Assembly: GCA_963662665.2 (NCBI GenBank)
Contig: CAXXJS010000053.1
Location: forward strand, 32,469-96,468
Length of the DNA: 64,000 nt
Reading direction: 5' to 3'
Origin: Candidatus Latescibacterota bacterium
Lineage (GTDB): Bacteria > Latescibacterota > UBA2968 > GCA-2709665
Shown: piece by piece, positions 24,399 through 39,354 of the stretch
How the letters are laid out: the number at the start of each line of letters is the position of its first letter
Numbering within the stretch: position 1 is the first letter of the stretch
Position numbers and translations under genes: made by a program
Notes under the pieces: generated by a model
Database searches by the model: none
Told to the model about the DNA's origin: nothing
What the model saw: only the letters and a program-made list of their open reading frames with translations

Positions 24399-27300
24399 CT
24401 AAGGCAGCGCGATTTTCCCCAGGTATTCCCTGAGCCTGGGGGGAACATGCTTTCGTATCAGGGTTTTCTCCAGCGTCCAGGCCGTTTCCGGATCGAGTTT
24501 CTTCTCGAAGTGAACTGATTTTCCTTCGTACCTCGCGACGGGTTCTCCATCGCGAAAGAGAATCCGGTTACCCGGAGTCGCGGGTATGCGTTTACCCGGC
24601 GTAACGACCCCCACAAGGTTGACCGGATCGCAAGCGCTGACCGATACGAGTTCGCCCCGTTTCTTTTCGCGCTTAAGCGACCGGATGACCGTGATCGCCT
24701 CCGGGAGCGCGTACTGCTCTCCCCATCTTTCCACAAATCGGCCTCCCCGCACCTCGCCTCGGTCCTCCATCCTCCTCAAGACCCTTACCAGATCGCGCCA
24801 CGGCGGTATCCCGTTCTCTCTGGCCAGTACCCGCCTGAACACAACCCCGTAACGTTTAAGCAGAATCCGCGCGCATTGTTCGATATCGGCCTGATCCTCG
24901 AATTCGGCGTCGATCACGGACCACCGGCCTGCCTGCTCCATACCAAAGACCGGTCCCCGATTCCGTCGGAACCGCACCTTGAATTTCTCGGGTATCAGAA
25001 GCGCCCGCAGACCTGCGAAGCTGTCGCACGTGAGCAATCCGCCCGCCACCAGTTCCGCGATGGCGCTCTCGATTTCGCTCCTGAGCATTTTCGACCTGGC
25101 AAGGACGTCGTGATAGAACAGCGCGCCGCCGGCTTTCAGACATTCGAGTACCGTTTGCGCGGACGGGGTCAGGACCGGCCCAGAGGACTCATGTGGGCGG
25201 AACGGCCAGGCCGGGAAGGTGGTTCGATTCACCAGGGTGATCGGCGTGGTGCGAATTGGCGTGTTTCCCGCCTTGACGCTCTGTGTCCGGAGATAACGGC
25301 CCCACATGGTCTTCCCTGATAAGCAGCAGGTATCCAGCCATACGTGGTCGTAGTCCTTGATGCGTGACGGCAGGACGTCGCTCTCCCACGCGATGGCGGG
25401 ACAGGAATATCCGTCGAGTTGATCCAGAACTTCATTGAGCGCTTCGGGACCTTCCTTCCGGGTGCCCTCCGTCAGGCTGTGCCAGCGGAGCAGAAACCGC
25501 AAGTAATCCGACGAGGAAATGGGCTTGATCGCTCGCCGCAGCTTTTCGAGCGTATATCTGTGGATGCGCGCAAGCAGGCGGCGCTCGCACCATTCCGTTT
25601 CGGCATCGGAAGGCTGATCCGGGGAGAAGTGTCCCCTGATCGCAAAGCCTTCGGATTCCAGAGCGAGAAGGGCCTGGTCGATCCTCTCACTGGAGAGGCC
25701 CAGGTCCCCGGCGATCCCGGTCGCGGTTGTGGGACCCAGCAGTTCTATTCTGCCCCTGACCACGTCCGTGAGTACCTGTTCCGAATGTTCCGACGGGAAT
25801 TCCCGGATGGTGTCGGGAACCGTCGTCCCGGCACGTCCAACGGCTTCTCCATAAAGGAGTTCAAATTGCTGAATTCGTTCGATTGCGATCCAGAACCTGT
25901 GGCCGTCCTCCGGGTCGACGGGTACGGCCTGGCCGGACGCCACAAGCGTTTCCAGGTGTGGGCGCCACGTCCCGTTGCCGCCTTCCATCACTTCCGCGTC
26001 GGTCAGGAACCCGTGCATCACCAGAACGTCGTAAAGCTCGTCCGCGTCCGTAACCACGGGCCAGGCCTCCGCCTGCACCGCCTCGATCGCGCCTTTTTCA
26101 AGCTTGCCCAGCTTCCTGGCGTCTTCGGGTTCGAGCCATCTACGGGTTCTGACGGCCTGTACCCGCCTTTCCTCCAGGGGCGCGTCGTCGAGAAACGCAT
26201 ACGGCCGCGCGTTGAGAATGCCTTCGGACATCGGAGAGGGCTCGCGCAGGTCGCGGGCGGAGATTTCGATTTCACCGTTGTGAATCCTCTGGAGAAGACG
26301 TTCCAGGGCACCCACGTCCATCGCCTCGTACAAACAGTCATGAATAGTCTGGTACACCAGAGGATGGTCGGGCACCTCGCGGTCGCCAGGGATGTTTTCC
26401 AGGCAGGCGAGCTGATCGGGAAATATGAGCGCAAGCAGGTCTTCGGCGTCGGAACGCTGGATCTGGGGCGGAACGCGTTCTCCGCCCCTTCGCCTGAGTA
26501 CGGCCAGCGCGGTGGAGGCGTTCCATCTCCAGCGCGCCTGGAACATCGGTGCATCCAGGAGGGCCTGTACGAGAACCTCCCGAACCGTCCGGTCGTTCAG
26601 ATAATCCACCACTTCCTTGAGAGGGAAGCTGTGCGTGGGCCCGAGGGAAAGCACCAGACTCTCTTCGTTGGCCGCCGCCTGGAGTTCGAAATTGAACTTG
26701 CGGCAGAATCGTTTTCGAAGGGCGAGCCCCCACGCCCGGTTCAACCGGTTTCCGAAAACCGAATGAATGACGAGGTGCTGGTCGCCAACCTCGTCGAAGA
26801 ATCGCTCCAATACGATGTGCTTCTGAGATGGCACGAGGTCCAGAGATGCCTTTGTGGCAGCGAGGTACGTCACCACCTGATCGGCCGCCTCCGCGCTTGC
26901 GCCGACGGATTCGGTCAGCCAGGCGACGGCGTCTCGTTTCCACTCGCCGGACCCGTCGTCATCGAGCACATCCAGGTCTACGCGTGCTGACACTTCTTCG
27001 CGGACGCGGGAGACTGCCGATGAGAGTTCCGCGGACCTGCCCGGAGCCTCGCCGATCCAGAACGGCATTGTGGGGGGAAGGCCGTCGGCGTCTTCGACGC
27101 GCACCTTTCCCGTTTCCACCTTGAGAATTCGCCAGGACGCCGTCCCCAGCTGGAAGATGTCACCCGGAAGGCTTTCTACTGCGAAGTCCTCGTGTACGGA
27201 CCCGATCTGGACGCCAGACGGTTCGAGCCGGACGTCGTAGTCGAACTGGTCGGGAATCGTTCCACCTGACACGGTCGCATTGAGGCGGGCGCCTTTCCGG

Positions 27301-28730
27301 GCCCTTAGTGTCTGAGTGACCGGATTGAAGTGGAGGTATGATCTTCGCGTGCCGCGCCTGAATGTGAACCCTTCAACGAGCATCTGGACGACGCCGTTGA
27401 ATTCTTCAATGCTCAGGTCGCGGTAGATGTACGACTTCCGTACGAGGTCGTAAAGGGCATCTGCGGTATCGTCCTCGCAGGCGACTTCCGCCACAACCTG
27501 CTGGGCGAGTACGTCCAGCGGTTTCTCGGGGATCGGGAGCTTGTCCAGTTCTCCTCTGCGAACACTGTCCAGCAGCGCCACCGCTTCGACCAGTTCGTCC
27601 TTGGTGAGCGGAAATAACTTTCCCCTGGGCGTTCCCTCGAGGGTATGGCCGGATCGGCCAACGCGCTGGAGCAGCGTGGCAATTGACTTGGGCGACCCGA
27701 TCTGAACGACCAGATCGATGGATCCTACGTCGATGCCCAGTTCGAGAGATCCCGTGGCCACCAGGGCCCTTAGTGCGCCGGCCTTAAGCCTCGTCTCCGC
27801 ATCTTGGCGTTTCTCGCGGGACATGCTCCCGTGGTGGGCGGAGACGACATCGGATCCCAGCCGGGAGGAAAGATGATGCGACAGGCGTTCGGTCATGGCG
27901 CGTGTGGGAACGAATATCAGCGTCGTCTGATGTTCGACGATCGTACTTTCCAAAGACCGATGGATCTCTTCCCAGACCTCGTTGGCCATCACCGCCGTGA
28001 GTGGGGACTCGGGTAATTCGATCTCGAGTTCAAGCTCGCGCCGGTGCCCGATGTTGAGGATCTTGCATGGATCCTGGTCGCCGGTGAGAAATCGCGCCAT
28101 CCGCTCGATGGGTTTCTGGGTGGCGGAGATGCCGATCCGGTGGATGGGGTTCCGGCTGAGACGGGCGAGTCGCTCCATGGAAATGGAAAGGTGGGCGCCG
28201 CGTTTGTTACCGGCAACGGCGTGGATCTCATCCACGATAAGGGTGCCCGCGTTGCTCAACATTTCCCTTCCGCCGTTGCTTGTCAGCAGAAGGTAGAGGG
28301 ATTCCGGCGTGGTCACCAGGACGTGGGGGGGCGTCCTGACCATTTTCGCCCGTTCCGTGGCCGGGGTGTCTCCGGTCCGGACCATCGCTCGTATGCCGGC
28401 GTGCGGATAACCGTGCTGTTCGAGGAGCGCCTTTATGCCTTTGAGAGGAACCTGCAGATTGCGATGGATGTCGTTGCTGAGCGCCTTCAGAGGCGATACA
28501 TAGACGACCTGCGTCCGGTCCTCCAGCTTGCCATTGAGACTACGCTCGAACAGATCGTTCAGGACGGCAAGAAATGCGGCGAGTGTTTTTCCGGACCCGG
28601 TCGGCGCCGACAGCAGGACGTTCCTTCCGTTCAGAATCTCAGGCCAGGCCAGCGACTGGATTTCCGAAGGGCCGTTGAAATTCTGATTAAACCACTGTTC
28701 GACAAGGGGATGGAAGCCTCTTAGGGACAT
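24399..28730 (-). CDS. lhr: Lhr-family ATP-dependent helicase (long form)
   Basis: APTGSGKT, SPLKALSND, DEIH, SAT, HHGS, LELGID, QRVGRSGH; long C-terminal region. Confidence 0.9.
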   Translation of the reverse strand: MSLRGFHPLVEQWFNQNFNGPSEIQSLAWPEILNGRNVLLSAPTGSGKTLAAFLAVLNDLFERSLNGKLEDRTQVVYVSPLKALSNDIHRNLQVPLKGIKALLEQHGYPHAGIRAMVRTGDTPATERAKMVRTPPHVLVTTPESLYLLLTSNGGREMLSNAGTLIVDEIHAVAGNKRGAHLSISMERLARLSRNPIHRIGISATQKPIERMARFLTGDQDPCKILNIGHRRELELEIELPESPLTAVMANEVWEEIHRSLESTIVEHQTTLIFVPTRAMTERLSHHLSSRLGSDVVSAHHGSMSREKRQDAETRLKAGALRALVATGSLELGIDVGSIDLVVQIGSPKSIATLLQRVGRSGHTLEGTPRGKLFPLTKDELVEAVALLDSVRRGELDKLPIPEKPLDVLAQQVVAEVACEDDTADALYDLVRKSYIYRDLSIEEFNGVVQMLVEGFTFRRGTRRSYLHFNPVTQTLRARKGARLNATVSGGTIPDQFDYDVRLEPSGVQIGSVHEDFAVESLPGDIFQLGTASWRILKVETGKVRVEDADGLPPTMPFWIGEAPGRSAELSSAVSRVREEVSARVDLDVLDDDGSGEWKRDAVAWLTESVGASAEAADQVVTYLAATKASLDLVPSQKHIVLERFFDEVGDQHLVIHSVFGNRLNRAWGLALRKRFCRKFNFELQAAANEESLVLSLGPTHSFPLKEVVDYLNDRTVREVLVQALLDAPMFQARWRWNASTALAVLRRRGGERVPPQIQRSDAEDLLALIFPDQLACLENIPGDREVPDHPLVYQTIHDCLYEAMDVGALERLLQRIHNGEIEISARDLREPSPMSEGILNARPYAFLDDAPLEERRVQAVRTRRWLEPEDARKLGKLEKGAIEAVQAEAWPVVTDADELYDVLVMHGFLTDAEVMEGGNGTWRPHLETLVASGQAVPVDPEDGHRFWIAIERIQQFELLYGEAVGRAGTTVPDTIREFPSEHSEQVLTDVVRGRIELLGPTTATGIAGDLGLSSERIDQALLALESEGFAIRGHFSPDQPSDAETEWCERRLLARIHRYTLEKLRRAIKPISSSDYLRFLLRWHSLTEGTRKEGPEALNEVLDQLDGYSCPAIAWESDVLPSRIKDYDHVWLDTCCLSGKTMWGRYLRTQSVKAGNTPIRTTPITLVNRTTFPAWPFRPHESSGPVLTPSAQTVLECLKAGGALFYHDVLARSKMLRSEIESAIAELVAGGLLTCDSFAGLRALLIPEKFKVRFRRNRGPVFGMEQAGRWSVIDAEFEDQADIEQCARILLKRYGVVFRRVLARENGIPPWRDLVRVLRRMEDRGEVRGGRFVERWGEQYALPEAITVIRSLKREKKRGELVSVSACDPVNLVGVVTPGKRIPATPGNRILFRDGEPVARYEGKSVHFEKKLDPETAWTLEKTLIRKHVPPRLREYLGKIALP

Positions 28731-30518: not shown

Positions 30519-32834
30519 TCAGGCAAGGCTTCGGTAGCGATCCAATGCCTCTGCCCTCATGTCGCGGGAAACACACCCCGTGACCATCTTGAACGCACTA
30601 TCCAAACCCCAGGCATATCCAATGTCAACGATTGCTTCTCCAGATGCTTCAATTATTCTCCGAGTAGGAACTTTATTGCTGTTGGAAAGCTCGACCAGTT
30701 CATGAATGCGGTTACGGTCCGAGATCAGAACTGGCGCGCAGCATTCAATTGTCCTACCCAACATCAGCGTCGCCAGACGTGACGAATCCGTAGGAAGCTT
30801 GTCCCACACATTCCAGATTATCGGTTTGGAATTTGCTTGTTTTGCTTGGTCTATAATGTGGAAACATTCCGCTGCATCAAGCATTCGTTCGTTTCGCACA
30901 ACACCCAGGTAAACCGATCCCTGTTCGAACTCAAGAGTACATCCGGGATCGTCTACAGTCCTCCATCTGGACCCGCTGAACACAGCCGGTTGTCCATTGA
31001 GTTGCCGCACACGGATTGGCATCTTTGCATTCGGGTTTGGTGGATTCTGTGGTCTCGGTCTCGGCAGGTCATCGGCTTGTGGAATCCGATCCCACTCCAA
31101 TTCTCCATCAAGTAACCCCAAAACGAGATCCACAACGTAGATCGTCTCCGATTCGGTACATTTCGACAGTGGAAGTGCATTCGTAGTACCCACTTTTATT
31201 GCTGTGAGCTCGTTACCATCTGGAGAAAACGCAAATGGATGGGTTCTGGTCGTCCTCTGTTTGCTATCGTGGAGCGTACAGAGTGCGAACACGCGATTTT
31301 CGACCGCTCTTAGACGTAGAATCGATGACCATTTGATGTCAACTACATTGTCGTAGCTTGGATTAATCCATATTTGGGCGCCGCTCCTGGAGAGAAATCG
31401 GGCGAGCAGGCCCAAGTATTGGTCGTGGCAAATGGTCGAACCAGCCGTTACGCCGGCCAGATCGAAGGTTGGAAGCATCGAGTTCGGTGTCCAATCGGGT
31501 GTCTCAAATGCAACTGCGCATTCTGTCGAATGCTTCACATATGTTCGCGAGTGTGATCCATCTGGATCTATACGTAACAGGACCTGCCAGGTGCGGCAGG
31601 TAGAGTCGATATTATCGTCGGTCGCGCCGACCAGCAATGGTGCATCGAGATCCCCAGCGAGTTCCTTCAGTAAGTTGATCCGCTTGGAATCGGTCGCCCT
31701 AATGTATCCTTCCGGAAAGAGAACGAAGTCTACGACTTCGCCAGCAAAGGATGCGCGGGTGGGTATGACGGGTTTCTGGGCATTGTCTCCGAAAGGTACG
31801 ATTCCGAGTATCGTTTTTTGGTTTACCTGAGGAAACACGAACGCCGCACGCAGCGCAGAAGTCTTTTCATTAGCGTAATGATGCTTTTTAATCTTCGTTT
31901 GAGTTGTTCTTACGGGCTTCTGCATTGAACCGCGATGGCCAACAAATGTGCCGAATCGCTGCTGGTCGATGGTGCTTTCCGGGTCGAGGGAGCACCAGAT
32001 CATATCGCGGGCGTAAAGTCTGACTGTCGGTTGAAGACCCTTCGTCACCGGCACGAGATCGCGCAGGGCGTCATACCAGGCACGCTGTTCGTCGCGGAAT
32101 GGGGGATCGTTGTCCTTTGCATCGTGTTGCTCACAGTGTGAGATCCATTGCTTTCCGGAAAAACCCAGGACCAGGTCCTCCGGGTACGCGTGAAGCGTCA
32201 GCTTTCGAGGCATCGTAAAGTGTTGTCTTTCGTCAAACTCCAGGATGAAGCCGGGTTCCGGTACCCAAAAGTCGCACGCGGCCAGCGATTCGGTTTTCAC
32301 GAAATCCTTCAGGGAAAAACCACGGTATTTCTCTAGAATTGCTGCGAGGTTGCGCAGTGTCGAGTAGATCGGCGTTCCAGGGAATGAGGAAAGACGAGTT
32401 GGCCAGTCAAACCTGTGATTCGCCAGGCATTTCCCGTAGATTCGTTTGAGAAGATCGCGAACACGGACCTTACAGTCCTGACAATGCTCGCTGTGATGTT
32501 GATGCTGAATCACGGACTTTGTTTTCCTGAGTCGACCGGCATTAATCGCGGATGGCGAGGGGTAATTATTACCTCCGCAATTGCAATTGGTGATTTGGAA
32601 GCCACGTTTCCTCAGAAAGCCGTTTGACTCACCGCCGCCAGAGAATTCGTCCGAAGGAAGAAGCCGACCGGTTGCTATCTTGTGAGCCAATGCGACTGTG
32701 TATTTCGGTGGATAGTGGTATCCATCCGATACAAGACAGTAATTCAGTGCCCGCCTTCGTGGTGGAACCCCATCACGTCTAATTTGGCCCATAGCTGAGA
32801 CTACGTGAGTTTTGCTGATCAATGAAGGAATCAT
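30519..32834 (-). CDS. Multidomain protein: restriction-associated N-terminal head + PD-(D/E)XK-like nuclease + carbon-nitrogen hydrolase (nitrilase)
   Basis: YPPKY...FSGG.ESNGFLRKRGF head; CDF...ILEFDERQHF...QRAWYD nuclease-like core; LFPEG, YVKH, ICHD nitrilase E-K-C triad; lower GC than flanks. Confidence 0.7.
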   Translation of the reverse strand: MIPSLISKTHVVSAMGQIRRDGVPPRRRALNYCLVSDGYHYPPKYTVALAHKIATGRLLPSDEFSGGGESNGFLRKRGFQITNCNCGGNNYPSPSAINAGRLRKTKSVIQHQHHSEHCQDCKVRVRDLLKRIYGKCLANHRFDWPTRLSSFPGTPIYSTLRNLAAILEKYRGFSLKDFVKTESLAACDFWVPEPGFILEFDERQHFTMPRKLTLHAYPEDLVLGFSGKQWISHCEQHDAKDNDPPFRDEQRAWYDALRDLVPVTKGLQPTVRLYARDMIWCSLDPESTIDQQRFGTFVGHRGSMQKPVRTTQTKIKKHHYANEKTSALRAAFVFPQVNQKTILGIVPFGDNAQKPVIPTRASFAGEVVDFVLFPEGYIRATDSKRINLLKELAGDLDAPLLVGATDDNIDSTCRTWQVLLRIDPDGSHSRTYVKHSTECAVAFETPDWTPNSMLPTFDLAGVTAGSTICHDQYLGLLARFLSRSGAQIWINPSYDNVVDIKWSSILRLRAVENRVFALCTLHDSKQRTTRTHPFAFSPDGNELTAIKVGTTNALPLSKCTESETIYVVDLVLGLLDGELEWDRIPQADDLPRPRPQNPPNPNAKMPIRVRQLNGQPAVFSGSRWRTVDDPGCTLEFEQGSVYLGVVRNERMLDAAECFHIIDQAKQANSKPIIWNVWDKLPTDSSRLATLMLGRTIECCAPVLISDRNRIHELVELSNSNKVPTRRIIEASGEAIVDIGYAWGLDSAFKMVTGCVSRDMRAEALDRYRSLA

Positions 32835-33932: not shown

Positions 33933-34733
33933 TCATGGCCGCTTCCTGGCGACGAACAGACCGGGCCGCTTGACGATATGTATAGCGCCCCTGCCGGCAA
34001 TCTCCCGGTCCGCGATTTTTTCCAGTTCCCGCAATTCACTGGCGCTGAGCCAGTTGAATGACTTGAAGTACGCGACCAACGGTCCGGACTCCGTAATTCG
34101 GAGAGCGTCTTCGTACTTATGTAATCGCACGTCGGAGAACCATTCTTCAAGCTCCCTGCGGCCACTTTCGAGGCTGAACCAGTTGGAGTCTGTCACTTTG
34201 TCCGGAAATAAATCCGGATTCACCCTGCGCCCAAGTTCCGAGATGTTTCTCTTGTCTCCCCTTCCATTTGCAGCCGCGTACAGGAATCCACCGGGTTTCT
34301 GCACCCGCCGAATCTCGGAGAATGCTGTCCGGCGGTCCGGTACGTGATAGAGCATGTGATTCGCGATAACGGCGTCGAATTCGCGGTCGCCGTAAGGGAT
34401 CGCCTGGACGTCCAATACGACGAAGTGGAAGGGCGATTCGAGATTCGACAGAATCTCTCTTGCGGCCTTGACCATTCCAGGCGAGAAGTCGGAAAGCGTG
34501 ACTTTCCAGTGTAAGGGAACCCTTTCCGCGTTGTGGGTCCAGAGGTAACCCGGCCCGCATCCGACCTCCAGGATCCTCCCGAAGGAAGGCGCCGTAAGTT
34601 GATCGAAGACCCACGGGTGCCAAGCGCGGCTGTTCGTGCTGAAACGTGCGTGGAGTTCATATCTCGCATTGAGGTTGGACGTATCCCCATACTGTTCAAG
34701 ACGGAGGCGGTCCCGGTCGGAATGTCGTATCAG
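33933..34733 (-). CDS. Class I SAM-dependent methyltransferase, probable CTG start
   Basis: Frame stays open upstream of the listed ORF through ILEVGCGPG to a CTG with a GGAGG SD; also DFSPGMV, FDAVIANHMLYHV. Confidence 0.8.
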   Translation of the reverse strand: MIRHSDRDRLRLEQYGDTSNLNARYELHARFSTNSRAWHPWVFDQLTAPSFGRILEVGCGPGYLWTHNAERVPLHWKVTLSDFSPGMVKAAREILSNLESPFHFVVLDVQAIPYGDREFDAVIANHMLYHVPDRRTAFSEIRRVQKPGGFLYAAANGRGDKRNISELGRRVNPDLFPDKVTDSNWFSLESGRRELEEWFSDVRLHKYEDALRITESGPLVAYFKSFNWLSASELRELEKIADREIAGRGAIHIVKRPGLFVARKRP

Positions 34734-34734
34734 T

Positions 34735-36486
34735 CTACCCCTCCGCGCCGTATCGCCTGAGCAAAGCGCCCATGTCTGTTATCTTCGTTTCAATTCGGGC
34801 ATATTCCTTGTAGCCCTGCGGATTCTCGGTCCAGGCCAGCGGCGTCGCCCAGGGCGCACCCGCCAGATTCGGATTGGCGCCCGCTTCCAGCATGAATCTG
34901 ACGAGTTCGGGCCACTCGAAGCGTACCGCCATGGCGAGCGGCGTGGATTGCCTCTCGCCGCCCAGCACGTTCAACTCGGCTCCGTGGTCAATCAACTTTT
35001 CCGCGAACACGATTCGGTCGTGCTCGGTGACGTGCCAGGTGATTTCCGCGGTCCAATGAAGGGGGGTGAGGCCGCCTTTTTTCTCGCGTGCGTTCGGATC
35101 GAACCCGTGATCCAGAAGGCGTTCGAAGCAGGAGTAGAAGTGTTCGGCGCGGGATTTTCCCGGTTTGCCCGGACAGCGTAACCGCCACATCCGCATGGAC
35201 TGGCACAGTACGTCATGCATTTCGCTCTCTGAAAAACACGGATTCCGTGAAAGACAGAGTGCCACGAGATCCGGGTGCCCGCCGTGGACGGCGCCCTTAA
35301 TAACGTCCTTTACACACGATGGATCGGAGTTGACGAGCGCTGCATCGACGGCAATGTTGTCGCTGTTCGAGGCGTAGAATCCCGGCGCGATCTCGTCGTC
35401 GAACCCGGGATATGCGCCGTGCCGTAAAAGCAGTTTTTCCATCGCCTCGTTCCCGTTCGCAATCGCCCAGTTCAATGCGTTCCCGGATGCGTCCATCACG
35501 GTATGCGCCGAGGCCCCGTTCGCCAGGAGCAGCGCCGCCATCTCAAGATCGTCGTTGAGCGCAGCCGCGTGTAACGGGGCGCCGCGCTCGGCCACGGGGT
35601 ATCCTTGGTACTTGTCATAAGGCGTGTCCGGATTCGCGGCCCGTTCCAACAGGAGACGCACGACCTCGACGTGTCCCTTGTCGGCGGCGATCGAAATCGG
35701 ATAGGCGTCCATGCCAGGATAGTTTCGGGCCCGGTCATTCACGGCATCGGGATCGGCATCAAGAATCCTCCGCGCGCCGTCGGCGTCGCCGATGGCGCAG
35801 GCCACCCACAGATCGTATTCCGCGCCCCTTCCCAGCAGAATGCCGCCTATGACCGGCCACAACGGGCTCGGCGGCGGGTCCCATCCGCGTTTGGGCCGTG
35901 GTCCAAGGGCGAGGTGGATGGGCTTCTTTCCACGAGCATTCGTTCGATTCGGATCGGCGCCGCGGTCCAGAAGTTCCTGAGTCACGTCGATATGATGGTT
36001 TTCCACCGCGACGTGAAGCGCCGTATCGCCGCTGCGGTTCACCGAGTGTACACCGGATGGGTCCGAGACGAGCAGTTCCGTCACGCGATCGTAATCACCT
36101 CTGCCCGCCGCCCGGCACAGCTCGACGCCAGTCTCTGACTCTCCGGACTGCCGCAACCGCCACGCTTCCATCGCTTCAGCCACTTCGGCATGCCCGTGGT
36201 GCCTGGCCATATCGATCGCGGAGACACGCTCCCGGTAGGTTATCCGGGTCGGGCTGGCGCCGGCCGACAGGAGCAGCCTGACCACTTCCAGGTGTCCCTC
36301 GCGCGCCGCTTGATGGATGGCCTGATAACCATGCACGCCGTCTCGCCACGCGAGTTCGGGTTTCTGCTTCAAGATGGACCGCACCTGGTCCAGGTCACCC
36401 TCGCGCGCTGCCTTACAGATTTCCGCGACGCCGGCGGACTCGTTATCCCGGGCCGGTCCATTCCTGCGAAGCTTTCTCTCTGACAT
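34735..36486 (-). CDS. Ankyrin repeat protein
   Basis: Repeated GxTALHxA / AAxxGHxEVVRLLLxxGA units. Confidence 0.9.
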   Translation of the reverse strand: MSERKLRRNGPARDNESAGVAEICKAAREGDLDQVRSILKQKPELAWRDGVHGYQAIHQAAREGHLEVVRLLLSAGASPTRITYRERVSAIDMARHHGHAEVAEAMEAWRLRQSGESETGVELCRAAGRGDYDRVTELLVSDPSGVHSVNRSGDTALHVAVENHHIDVTQELLDRGADPNRTNARGKKPIHLALGPRPKRGWDPPPSPLWPVIGGILLGRGAEYDLWVACAIGDADGARRILDADPDAVNDRARNYPGMDAYPISIAADKGHVEVVRLLLERAANPDTPYDKYQGYPVAERGAPLHAAALNDDLEMAALLLANGASAHTVMDASGNALNWAIANGNEAMEKLLLRHGAYPGFDDEIAPGFYASNSDNIAVDAALVNSDPSCVKDVIKGAVHGGHPDLVALCLSRNPCFSESEMHDVLCQSMRMWRLRCPGKPGKSRAEHFYSCFERLLDHGFDPNAREKKGGLTPLHWTAEITWHVTEHDRIVFAEKLIDHGAELNVLGGERQSTPLAMAVRFEWPELVRFMLEAGANPNLAGAPWATPLAWTENPQGYKEYARIETKITDMGALLRRYGAEG

Positions 36487-36670
36487 CGTCAATAGTCCCT
36501 CTTCAACCTTATCTATTCTGGTCGCAGACGCATGATCACAATAATCGGCGGCGCCTGCGGAAACGCTGTGACTCACTGGTAAGCCTGATGATTTCAGTAA
36601 ACCACGCGGGGCGAGTTGAACGTGGTTGATGCGTCCCGGACAGTCTTTGTCAGGTTCACCCCGATGCAGG

Positions 36671-39001
36671 TCAGGACCCAACCAGATCGGACGTCTCTAC
36701 GAGTTTCCACGTATTTCCGCGGTCTTCGGACATTATCAGCGAGCGGCGGCTTTCGGGGTGGTCGTTCCGGTAGAACCAGTAGGTTGAGAAATAGTCGTAT
36801 GAGAGGAAAAGCCGGCCGATGCGGTCTATGGTGAGGCGGTGGTAGAACACGCTGTATTCCGAAAACGGAGGCACGACAAGGACCCTGGGTTCCTGCCAGG
36901 CGTCGCCCGCGGGGCACTGCTGATGCGCGAGGGTGGCGTAGTTGCCGGCAGGGAAGTAGCTGGTTCCGTTCCACCAGAGCCTGAAGGCCGAATGCAGCGT
37001 GTCTTTCGGGTCACACACGAATCCGATGTAGGTCTGCCGGGCGTCCGGCCAGGCCTCCCGGGGCTCCGTCCAGCCGGCGTCAGCCGTGTTCGAACCCAGC
37101 GATCGGGCATACGGGAAGGGGCATCCGTGGGTACCCGAGAGCGCGTGTAGATAGCCCTGGCTGTCCATCGTGATGCTGGGTGAATTGTGGACGTCGTTCG
37201 CGGGCGGACCGTAGCCGACCAGCGCGGGCGCCCCCATCGTCCGTGTCTTCCTGTCGATGGTGGCCACGTACGTCGGCACGCCCGGGACGTCTTCGTCCGG
37301 ATCGGTCGCTTCGGCCCAGATGACGTGTACTTTGCCTTCCCTGGAGACAACCGAAGCCGGGATTCCGGAGTGCTGGGAGAGACCGATACACTGATCGGAG
37401 ACGAGTATCGGTTCTCCCAACGAAAGCCCGCGCGACGTCGTCTCGGGCAGGAAAAGTTCCAGGTCGTTGACTTTTCGCCAGAACAGGCGGGCATCTTCCG
37501 CGGTGCGGGCGTAGCGGAGGATGGGGGGCGGTCCGTCGCAGGAATTGTGGCCTGTGAACCATTCGATATCGAATGTACGCGGACAATCCTCTCTTCCGGG
37601 AATTGCGCACGCGGAAAACGTGTGGCCCTGATCCCTGGAATACAGCAGGTTGGGTTGACCGTTGACATTTTCTACAATATATAGTAGATTTCGCGCGTCG
37701 AAGGCAATCTTGGTGGACGCGGATCCAAAAGTGGCGTTGTCAAAACCGTCGACGGATCTTCTGAAGTCGGATTCGGTCCAGCGTCCCTCGCGCAAGGCGC
37801 CGATCCCTTTTTCGGTCCTTACGAACGGCCGGTTGTCGAGATCGAAATAGATCTGGCTCTCCACGGGACAGTCGGGAACAAAACCGAACTGTGCGTTTTC
37901 ATGTTCGTAGGGCTTTAGTACCAGTGGTAGACGGATGGGACGTCTAACGGGTGAAGTTCCGGTCCTGAGCGTCAACGTCGAATAGGTGGATATCTCGGGG
38001 TATGTTTCGGATGTTGCCGTCACTCGGCACGTTAGGACGTCGTCTTTCCCTGCCGAATCCGGCATGCTGTAACGGGCGGAGACGCGCGCGCTCTCCATTG
38101 CGCCGAGATGGACGGTGTCCGCTGAGAGCCGGACGGGGACGATGGCTGCCCCATCGATTTCGGGCGTCAGCCGCACGGTTTGCGGGCTGTTGGAGCTGTT
38201 TCTGACCTGGAGGTCGATCGCGCCGGACGCTCCCCGGCGAACGTACACGTTTCGGTTGTAGGGTGTGAGCAGCCAGCGGCAGGCGTGGAGCGGGAAGAAG
38301 GAATCCAGTTGAGGGGTCCAGTAGGACATGTTCACGTGCGGGTCGTCGTCCCACCAGCGCGTGACGCCGTCGATGTGGATAACGGCCTGCTGGGCGGGAA
38401 GGTGGAGGCGCCACGGCGTGGAACGGTGAACGTCTGCCGGAAATGTATGGAGGACGCGCCCGCCCCGAACCGCAAGGGTATCAACGAGGCTACCGGAAGC
38501 ATCGAACACGGTCAGCGCTGCCACAGAGTCGGGCAGGTCTTCGATTTCAACGGCGAACGCGCCCTCGGGAGGAAGAAAGCAGACGTCGCCGGGATGCTCC
38601 GGCGCGAGCAGCACGATGGGTTCCTGGTGCCTGGCGTCCTTGTGCCCGCGGGAAGTCTCGATGAGGTAAAGCCTGCAGTTGGTCCGAAACGCCCAGATGA
38701 TCTCCTCGCCGTACCTGTCATTTGAAATAGTGATGCTGAGTTTGTAGATACCTTTGTGGTTGACATACGTCGACAACCGTGTATGTTGAAGAGGGCCGTC
38801 GCCATCGCCCGGACCGGTATCGGGGAGCGTCACCTCCTGAATGACCTTTCGGTCCGGCGCTATCAGAAGCGCGCGCAGGTCCGTGCGGCGGTCATGCACG
38901 TTCCGGTCGCGTTTCTGCAGGTCAATGACAAGCTCACCGGGCTCAGTGAGAAAATACGCGCCTCCGGCGCCTCCGATACCCCATCGAATCTTCGAGTCCA
39001 T
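36671..39001 (-). CDS. BNR-repeat (BNR_4-like) protein, putative glycoside hydrolase
   Basis: YSRDQGHTF and MSEDRGNTW Asp-boxes; DVHNSPSITMDSQGYLH. Confidence 0.75.
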   Translation of the reverse strand: MDSKIRWGIGGAGGAYFLTEPGELVIDLQKRDRNVHDRRTDLRALLIAPDRKVIQEVTLPDTGPGDGDGPLQHTRLSTYVNHKGIYKLSITISNDRYGEEIIWAFRTNCRLYLIETSRGHKDARHQEPIVLLAPEHPGDVCFLPPEGAFAVEIEDLPDSVAALTVFDASGSLVDTLAVRGGRVLHTFPADVHRSTPWRLHLPAQQAVIHIDGVTRWWDDDPHVNMSYWTPQLDSFFPLHACRWLLTPYNRNVYVRRGASGAIDLQVRNSSNSPQTVRLTPEIDGAAIVPVRLSADTVHLGAMESARVSARYSMPDSAGKDDVLTCRVTATSETYPEISTYSTLTLRTGTSPVRRPIRLPLVLKPYEHENAQFGFVPDCPVESQIYFDLDNRPFVRTEKGIGALREGRWTESDFRRSVDGFDNATFGSASTKIAFDARNLLYIVENVNGQPNLLYSRDQGHTFSACAIPGREDCPRTFDIEWFTGHNSCDGPPPILRYARTAEDARLFWRKVNDLELFLPETTSRGLSLGEPILVSDQCIGLSQHSGIPASVVSREGKVHVIWAEATDPDEDVPGVPTYVATIDRKTRTMGAPALVGYGPPANDVHNSPSITMDSQGYLHALSGTHGCPFPYARSLGSNTADAGWTEPREAWPDARQTYIGFVCDPKDTLHSAFRLWWNGTSYFPAGNYATLAHQQCPAGDAWQEPRVLVVPPFSEYSVFYHRLTIDRIGRLFLSYDYFSTYWFYRNDHPESRRSLIMSEDRGNTWKLVETSDLVGS

Positions 39002-39354
39002 GGTCCTCGCCTCCGGATTGTCGTCGATGCATTGTATTGGTACCAAGTATAAGGTTGGGGCCCGTCAATTGAAACGAAAATAAGCCGTGGGCAGGGTCTG
39101 CGGATCTGCATTGCGTCGGCTGCGATCCGATACGCTTTACCATGGAAACGTGAGACGCGAAGCTGAAATCTTGGAACGAACAAGCGAACCGGGAAGTCGA
39201 AAGGGCATGAAGGAACCACGCCTCGACGTCGGTTCGTCTCCACAGGTAATAGATTCAAAACCTTCACGTAACCGGTCCGTAACATGGGTTGTATATTCTG
39301 CGTTGCTGATGGTCTTTTTCGCGGTTCGACGTAGATACAACGAGGGGGGATAAG

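Follow-up and report, generated by a model that had tools for sequence, protein, structure and literature searches.

The closest described systems each share a part of the protein reported here. ScoMcrA of Streptomyces coelicolor, a Type IV phosphorothioate-dependent restriction endonuclease, carries SBD and SRA reader domains, an HNH nuclease and a small N-terminal head; it is the sole characterised protein with that head domain, and the role of the domain is unknown even there. Type III-B CoCoNuT systems are McrBC-related and Type IV-related, and Vsr-like effectors are described for them. For the reverse transcriptase-nitrilase defence systems DRT1 and UG5, the DRT1 report presents the nitrilase as the effector, places oligomer contacts in it and gives its substrate as unknown, and it also calls nitrilases uncommon in anti-phage systems. 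Here we describe a gene in a 64,000-nucleotide stretch of DNA (the whole stretch analysed, hereafter the window; positions 32,469 to 96,468 of contig CAXXJS010000053.1, assembly GCA_963662665.2, Candidatus Latescibacterota bacterium) whose product joins a ScoMcrA_N-type head, a Vsr-like PD-(D/E)xK domain, a nitrilase domain and a C-terminal tail. Because of ScoMcrA as a Type IV enzyme, the Vsr-like effectors of McrBC-related systems and the nitrilases of DRT1 and UG5, the reading that we rank first, and hold tentatively, is that of a restriction-like enzyme of defence that acts alone, moves horizontally and carries an amidase or nitrilase as an accessory module.

Similar to the gene product, DRT1 and UG5 fuse a nitrilase to a nucleic-acid enzyme in one defence protein; the partner is a polymerase there, whereas here it would be a nuclease. 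No reverse-transcriptase family was found in the protein by Pfam search or among its neighbours in the window. With Type III-B CoCoNuTs the gene product has in common a Vsr-like PD-(D/E)xK effector in Type IV-related restriction, but those systems are multi-gene assemblies of McrB, McrC and a helicase, and the gene here is solitary, with neither a GTPase nor a helicase partner. ScoMcrA shares with it the small N-terminal head and the arrangement of several domains, a nuclease among them, on a single chain. Where ScoMcrA has SBD, SRA and HNH domains, however, the gene product has the Vsr-like nuclease, the nitrilase and the tail, and a Pfam search of the protein did not find an HNH nuclease. 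A preliminary description, made from the sequence alone, had known of no defence protein with this architecture. Literature searches on PF26345, DUF7255, nitrilases in defence or restriction, and nitrilases with 7-deazaguanine (with supplements outside the scope) likewise retrieved no account of the fusion, although nitrilase domains as such are already known in defence from DRT1 and UG5. The parts of the family are all of known kinds; the combination, the family size and the modularity are new.

Of the 8000 candidates scored in a homologue search, 462 reached E ≤ 0.001, and precomputed family assignments place PF26345 and PF00795 together on 117 of the 120 homologues listed, most of which cover 98-100% of the query at 55-94% identity. 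Given these full-length homologues with both families, the open reading frame (ORF) is no chance frame, and the fusion is no read-through artefact, an outcome that the preliminary description had named as one that would undo its proposal. In an alignment of 30 homologues the mean column identity is 62%, with all four parts conserved. The motifs that had been quoted earlier are all present in the translation where they had been placed, with codons verified: HYPPKY...FSGGGESNGFLRKRGF at residues 40-79; H114-x3-C118-x2-C121, C187-D188-F, LEFDERQHF (198-206) and QRAWYD (250-255) in the middle domain; FPEG (373-376, with E375), YVKH (432-435, with K434) and ICHD (468-471, with C469) in the nitrilase; and, further on, LRAVENRVFALCT at residues 508-520 and LGRTIECCAPVLIS at residues 692-705. 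The protein was modelled in two pieces, residues 1-320 and 321-771, each with an alignment. The first model has a predicted local distance difference test score (pLDDT) of 89.7, with a disordered linker at residues 95-105, and the second a pLDDT of 92.3 and a predicted template modelling score (pTM) of 0.93. The structural searches matched the head, middle and nitrilase folds as had been proposed for each. The features are listed in Table 1.

Table 1. Features of the gene and its product in the window, with the basis of each assignment
Feature	Residues	Position in window	Strand	Basis
Whole gene		30519..32834	minus	771 codons plus stop, ATG start; sole ORF, translated
ScoMcrA_N-type head, PF26345	1-92	32559..32834	minus	profile and structure match
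Predicted Vsr-like PD-(D/E)xK domain	113-307	31914..32498	minus	fold match and conservation
H-x3-C-x2-C motif, start of nuclease domain	114-121	32472..32495	minus	conserved cysteines
CN_hydrolase domain	325-575	31110..31862	minus	E375, K434, C469 and second Glu E444
C-terminal tail	590-771	30522..31067	minus	conserved, predicted packed against nitrilase

The head belongs to PF26345, which is ScoMcrA_N by family name. Its alignment profile matches residues 4-98 of ScoMcrA (PDB 5zmm_A) at E 7.7e-6, and its model, with pLDDT >90, has 5zmm_A as the top-ranked match in VIA-align (Z 7.7, root-mean-square deviation (rmsd) 2.2, 65 residues). The preliminary description had likened this part to the head of McrA/McrB-type restriction proteins; homology to the N-terminal head of ScoMcrA is what these matches uphold, and not a generic McrA/McrB head.

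The middle domain is predicted to be a Vsr-like PD-(D/E)xK domain, an assignment made at fold level only and with middling Z values. Its best VIA-align match is Vsr of E. coli (1cw0_A; Z 7.1, rmsd 3.6, 112 residues, query 117-305). The other fold matches, which span residues 113-307 at Z 4-6.6, begin with two RAP-domain proteins, the homing endonuclease I-Bth0305I (Z 5.5) and NGO0050 (3hrl), all of the same Vsr-like clade, followed by TnsA, Bax1, VRR_NUC, Can2, McrC and Hjc; nearly all are PD-(D/E)xK folds. The motif in the gene product is of the type D ... E-x-D-x3-H. Across two alignments of diverse relatives, with 58 and 61 sequences, residues D188, E199, E202, H205, R210, D248, R251, D255 and R272 never vary, and D201, Q204, D241, R247, E249, A252, W253, R258 and D259 are invariant in the 61-sequence alignment and at least 90% conserved in the other. 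A PD-(D/E)xK/Vsr-like nuclease had been proposed for this part; the predicted fold agrees with it, and the acidic/His motif, a putative active site, is conserved. Compared with Vsr and the DUF559 nucleases, the domain is larger (about 195 residues), lies inside a 771-residue fusion and has no mismatch-repair context. Neither Vsr nor DUF559 Pfam models matched the protein at E ≤ 1 or the 61 relatives at E ≤ 1e-3; the Pfam model DUF7255 matched the middle domain weakly (E 8.4e-4) and was seen in 12 of the 61 relatives. Four cysteines (C118, C121, C234 and C281) are at least 90% conserved in both broad alignments. Vsr holds a zinc site, and the H-x3-C-x2-C motif may, judging from the sequence, form a similar structural site together with C234 and C281.

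The nitrilase domain exceeds the curated threshold of PF00795, scoring 38.5 bits where 23.2 are required (E 1.1e-9; query 380-541). A Foldseek comparison of its model with mouse Nit2 (2w1v) gave E 3.9e-13, and VIA-align returned 24 chains at Z ≥ 8, all of the nitrilase superfamily, with a top Z of 24.0. The fold, an alpha-beta-beta-alpha sandwich, and the E-K-C triad are those of Nit2, yeast Nit3 (1f89) and NitFhit (1ems). The triad had been described earlier as intact, and E375, K434 and C469 of the FPEG, YVKH and ICHD motifs are indeed invariant in 30 of 30 aligned sequences, with E444 at least 90% conserved. The domain would be a catalytically competent amidase or nitrilase, for which C-N bond hydrolysis is predicted. 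The best sequence matches of the domain are Nit-branch amidases (E 1.3e-4, about 18-22% identity); unlike in those enzymes, the nitrilase here is fused to nucleic-acid-type domains and is predicted to be clasped by a 180-residue tail. The pTM of the second model suggests that tail and nitrilase are packed together into a single unit, whereas free nitrilases associate with a second subunit. The most conserved residues of the tail are W674, N675, W677, G693, R694, E715 and K721. We would like to note that an origin of the tail as a degenerate second half-nitrilase, which had been proposed from an echo between the two sequences at residues 508-520 and 692-705, found no support in profile comparison: hhalign against the nitrilase gave a probability of 0.55% (E 0.11, 19 columns), and the echo is not significant. 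The ESM Atlas features of residues 585-771 gave weak leads only (0.88-0.90).

In a restriction-like defence enzyme built in this way, the N-terminal half, head and Vsr-like domain together, would bind and cut nucleic acid, most likely DNA. We infer the cutting from the fold and the intact D/E/H motif, and a defence role and any link to modified bases are likewise inferred. The C-terminal half, an E-K-C nitrilase clasped by a family-specific tail, would be an amidase or nitrilase working with the nuclease. With about equal likelihood, it might hydrolyse or read a group of the bound nucleic acid that bears an amide or nitrile, or, like the nitrilase domains of DRT1, it might add a second, regulated activity or act as a scaffold for oligomerisation. 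A more specific mechanism, which we regard as a long shot, is that the nitrilase and tail act on a flipped-out base bearing an amide, nitrile or carbamoyl group and that hydrolysis or covalent trapping of this base licenses cutting by the Vsr-like domain. Candidate bases would be 7-amido- or 7-cyano-7-deazaguanine, a Mom-type carbamoylmethyl-adenine or a t6A-type RNA adduct. The preliminary description had put forward 7-cyano- or 7-amido-7-deazaguanine as an example, and the present results speak neither for nor against that proposal or a dependence on modification. Natural forms in which the head is joined directly to the nitrilase and tail suggest that no nuclease is needed for head and nitrilase to work together, and the idea of a nitrilase acting on the ligand of the head therefore stays alive. 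If true, no restriction-type enzyme before it would have had a catalytic de-modification domain, nor would any earlier member of the nitrilase superfamily have acted on nucleic acid, and those relatives that have Gly in place of the catalytic Glu would be pure readers.

The family was surveyed with HMMER across all of 1.84 billion cluster representatives, of which 1634 were matched at E ≤ 1e-3, 734 at E ≤ 1e-10 and 234 at E ≤ 1e-30. Hidden Markov models of the four parts were used to parse 149 listed relatives (mid, middle domain; nit, nitrilase; X, C-terminal domains of about 300 residues, of two main types, X1 and X2). The architectures were head-mid-X in 36, mid-X in 24, mid only in 24, head-mid in 20, head-mid-nit(-tail) in 15, nit only in 10, nit-tail in nine, head-nit-tail in two and other combinations in nine, with some of the short entries probably being gene fragments. 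The nuclease module is thus also found alone or with other C-terminal domains.

Pfam search of the X domains in the relatives matched no family. The motifs of X1 are TCGGF ... GKSYPT ... LGCHD ... HHPHT (18 loci) and those of X2 are LFPGGW ... GRKFHP ... CVCYD (11 loci); both types keep Lys- and Cys-containing motifs and seemingly have Gly at the position of the nitrilase catalytic Glu. Aligned to the nitrilase profile, X2 is collinear at all three triad motifs, but weakly so (hhalign E 0.01, probability 4%), and its only PDB match is to the Cys strand of the glutaminase domain of NAD synthetase (E 0.045). By ESM features, 17 of its 30 matches fall in one set, 29% of whose members carry CN_hydrolase. 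X1 retrieved nothing against the nitrilase profile and no meaningful match in the PDB, and the comparison of the X1 and X2 profiles gave E 0.008. As a lead only, X2 may be a nitrilase-like domain without the catalytic Glu. In many records from archaea and bacteria, both types stand C-terminal to the head and nuclease (loci L067-L105; e.g. L069:1986-2858 and L080:10895-11725). One of the ESM Atlas feature neighbours of X2 is a cluster labelled 100% viral (Uroviricota), in which 29% of the members carry CN_hydrolase. This hints that phages may carry related nitrilase-like proteins, although the scan of viral contigs, made with the full-length family, confirmed none.

The architectures also bear on a reading as an abortive-infection system, which we rank second and consider unlikely. 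In such a system the nitrilase and tail would kill the cell by hydrolysing an essential small molecule with an amide or nitrile group, and the head and Vsr-like domain would be the sensor or switch for foreign nucleic acid. The strictly conserved triad is in keeping with this, as is the occurrence of nitrilase and tail without the N-terminal half in nine of the 149 representatives and in one genome of the window's genus (G003), although these short entries may be gene fragments. DRT1 and UG5 also employ a nitrilase as the effector and need oligomerisation through it for activity; the protein has no sequence likeness to the PADLOC models of DRT1, however. Conservation is no less strict in the nuclease motif than in the triad, which would be unexpected for a mere sensor, and many relatives with head and middle domain have, in place of the nitrilase, X domains that seemingly lack the catalytic Glu.

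The gene lies in a co-directional string with the order PhyH, gene, AstE-like, HAD, Lhr. Its GC content is 0.514 and its GC content at third codon positions (GC3) is 0.532, against 0.589-0.619 and 0.70-0.75 for six neighbour genes, and the lower GC noted in the preliminary description is thereby borne out. That description had also called the gene stand-alone, which holds in the sense that it has no conserved partner gene; physically, it is part of the string. A promoter scan of the gene found 0 sigma-70-like sites against 2.1 expected, and a scan for flanking terminators found none that was convincing.

The same slot, between PhyH and the AstE/M14-like gene, is occupied in eight same-genus genomes, in which the flanking genes are 75-90% identical to those of the window and the gene itself 58-75%. 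It is full length in four (G005, G011, G013 and G014), interrupted near residue 272 by a DDE transposase in G007, reduced to a head joined to the nitrilase and tail in one open frame, with the nuclease domain gone, in G002 and G012, and present as nitrilase and tail only in G003. In a further five genomes (G001, G006, G008, G009 and G010) the gene is absent, and in all five PhyH directly abuts the AstE-like gene. The genus is thus cleanly polymorphic for presence and absence of the gene. In G007 the insertion encodes a 493-aa DDE transposase (DDE_Tnp_1_4, E 2.6e-33) on the opposite strand (L017:9402-10883), and this insertion sequence has inactivated the orthologue. The nuclease-less frames (G002:C1:3375748-3377400 and G012:C2:4820121-4821815; loci L019 and L018) encode 568 or 594 aa, with residues 1-90 of the head joined to the nitrilase and tail from about residue 300.

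A single-gene insertion at one intergenic point, often broken, could be selfish cargo, that is, a homing-endonuclease-like or otherwise mobile gene of no benefit to the host with the nitrilase as a passenger, and the Vsr-like clade does include a homing endonuclease, I-Bth0305I. We consider this improbable. The insertion shows no terminal repeats or target duplication beyond chance-size matches, its contexts differ among phyla with no conserved target gene, and no relative was confirmed in viral contigs. Moreover, four domains and both predicted active sites are conserved across phyla over 771 residues, which indicates selection on the whole protein. Less probable still is a metabolic nitrilase or amidase for which the N-terminal domains merely regulate or localise the enzyme. 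The gene does stand among genes for a PhyH dioxygenase, an M14/AstE-like protein and a HAD protein, and the closest sequence matches of its nitrilase domain are Nit-branch amidases, but those neighbours are conserved without the gene, the putative catalytic motif of the nuclease is invariant, and the module of head and middle domain also occurs alone and with other C-terminal domains.

Two genes from the gene, in the conserved string beside the insertion slot, lies an Lhr-type helicase (24399-28730, minus strand, 1443 aa; DEAD, Helicase_C, DEAD_assoc and Lhr winged-helix domains) that is 88-90% identical across the genus. Its proximity would suit an accessory role in DNA repair or maintenance, in which a Vsr-type nicking nuclease works with an amidase that clears carbamoyl, formamido or ureido remnants from damaged bases. 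Vsr, the best fold match of the middle domain, is itself a repair nuclease, and among the chains that resemble the nitrilase in structure are formamidase, N-carbamoyl amidohydrolases and enzymes of the beta-ureidopropionase type (Z 21-24). Nevertheless, we hold a repair role to be quite unlikely. The string with Lhr is intact in genomes without the gene, so the linkage is positional only, and presence and absence within the genus, foreign GC3, cross-phylum spread and frequent decay fit maintenance poorly. Moreover, no enzyme of the nitrilase superfamily is known to act on DNA lesions.

In the window's phylum, the protein occurs in 13 of 168 genomes and two of 49 genera (E ≤ 1e-20). A scan of one genome per species confirmed 240 relatives, for which 80 loci were kept. 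Full-length copies of 52-58% identity are found in records labelled Nitrospira, Vicinamibacterales/Bryobacterales/Acidobacteriota, Alpha- and Gammaproteobacteria, Dadabacteria, Thermodesulfobacteriota and Latescibacterota, a copy of 41% identity is found in a record labelled Aenigmatarchaeota, and head-mid(-X) forms are found in many archaeal records. A maximum-likelihood tree of 27 full-length proteins places most tips with others of their phylum. Its deep branches are short, and Acidobacteriota and Latescibacterota each appear in two places; the path from the window protein is 0.74-0.79 to other phyla, only about twice the 0.37 in its own genus clade. The tree pattern and the GC3 anomaly together point to transfer between lineages, after which the gene was inherited vertically at a local scale. 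In its present host it is foreign and horizontally acquired; it is accessory, mobile and fast-changing, with both predicted enzymatic centres under strong purifying selection. Together with a nuclease module that is also found alone or with other C-terminal domains, these traits make up a profile typical of solitary defence nucleases. Many of the full-length records are metagenome-assembled genomes whose isolate names have a small number of prefixes in common, and a common habitat could lie behind the cross-phylum spread.

Gene neighbourhoods were compared in two ways. An all-against-all clustering of 1216 ORFs from the 80 loci showed no conserved partner gene across phyla; the clusters that recur are those of the window's genus or of a single lineage. 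A Pfam tally then took in 34 non-redundant full-length loci and, on either side of each gene, the two closest ORFs of 150 aa or more (119 proteins, nine ORFs >1000 aa left out). Sulfatases number three, and luciferase-like proteins, resolvases, ABC proteins, GDSL lipases, Mrr_cat proteins, phage integrases, Schlafen AlbA_2 proteins and HNH proteins two each. Raw PADLOC matches among the neighbours include mad2, mad3, mad8, PDC-S02, PDC-S11, mREase_IV, DruA and MTase_II. At individual loci, L047 carries a 1704-aa Type ISP restriction-modification enzyme at a distance of 438 bp, and Mrr_cat proteins adjoin the gene in three (L068, L091 and L105); other neighbours checked were a sulfatase (L049), a histidyl-tRNA synthetase (HisRS; L080) and an ABC ATPase (L029). 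A D12 N6-adenine methylase adjoins a family member in L034, L064 and L103, all of one lineage, with methylases 86-93% identical. These methylase genes (L034:12839-13969, L064:10951-12108 and L103:2249-2834, in Latescibacterota-labelled records) overlap the family member by 42 bp or 3 bp where the nitrilase and tail are absent, and the two could form a restriction-modification-like pairing in that lineage. The 107 neighbours of 35 head-mid loci are mainly of housekeeping families, but they also include two N6_N4 DNA methylases, two D12 DNA methylases and two Mrr_cat proteins.

The preliminary description had proposed a single-gene anti-phage or modified-DNA restriction system and had looked to defence islands for confirmation. 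The proposal remains plausible in view of the foreign composition, the insertion-deletion polymorphism, the cross-phylum spread, the decay in place and the restriction, methylase or mobile genes beside some of the loci, and the neighbourhoods agree with it only in part, since most loci lie beside ordinary genes and no partner gene is conserved among them. Several observations weigh against a defence role. A minority of loci stand in restriction or mobile contexts and most do not: the commonest neighbour family of the full-length genes is sulfatase, with defence and mobile families at one or two members each, and the commonest neighbours of head-mid forms are histidine-kinase ATPases, HisRS, GTPases and small-molecule methyltransferases. 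These tallies count families without a control set, and we make no claim of enrichment. In the window itself, the neighbours (Lhr, HAD, M14/AstE-like, PhyH, ankyrin and BNR) are not defence genes. The protein matched 0 families of PADLOC-DB 2.0 at E ≤ 1, and among viral contigs 19 pattern matches yielded no confirmed relative. With respect to the protein, Pfam search found no modification-reader family (SRA, SBD, EVE or the like) at E ≤ 1, and the nuclease-fold match is only middling (Z 7.1). RNA-binding RAP domains are among the top fold matches, making an RNA target possible, and D188, E199, E202 and H205 are putative counterparts of the catalytic residues of Vsr.

Nitrilase domains gained recognition in anti-phage systems only lately, with DRT1 and UG5, and the family would make a second and independent case in which a nitrilase is joined to a nucleic-acid enzyme. 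With 234 representatives matched at the strictest threshold, the family is a large one and spans bacteria and archaea, and through it the ScoMcrA head domain gains a second, much larger context. Natural variants without the nuclease, without the nitrilase, or with a nitrilase-like domain seemingly without the catalytic Glu are at hand for dissection, and the role of the nitrilase here could answer the substrate question for nitrilase effectors generally. Should the nitrilase turn out to act on modified bases, this would make the family a new class of restriction enzyme, and it might serve as a tool with which DNA modifications bearing an amide or nitrile are read.

A few further observations concern the surroundings of the gene. 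A 180-aa methyltransferase ORF (33933-34475, minus strand) has Pfam matches that start at about profile position 30, and its N-terminal part is seemingly missing; the corresponding interval in L013, L015 and L018 gave a fragmentary match or none, and the stretch from PhyH to the ankyrin gene is also variable. The ankyrin-repeat protein (34735-36681, minus strand, 648 aa) is encoded in tandem with a BNR_4-family protein (36671-39046, minus strand, 791 aa), and the pair is conserved in the genus. Lastly, locus L028 (JAPPJY010000070.1), labelled Gemmatimonadota, is syntenic with, and of the same genus as, L026 and L027, which are labelled Latescibacterota, so that one of these labels is probably wrong.

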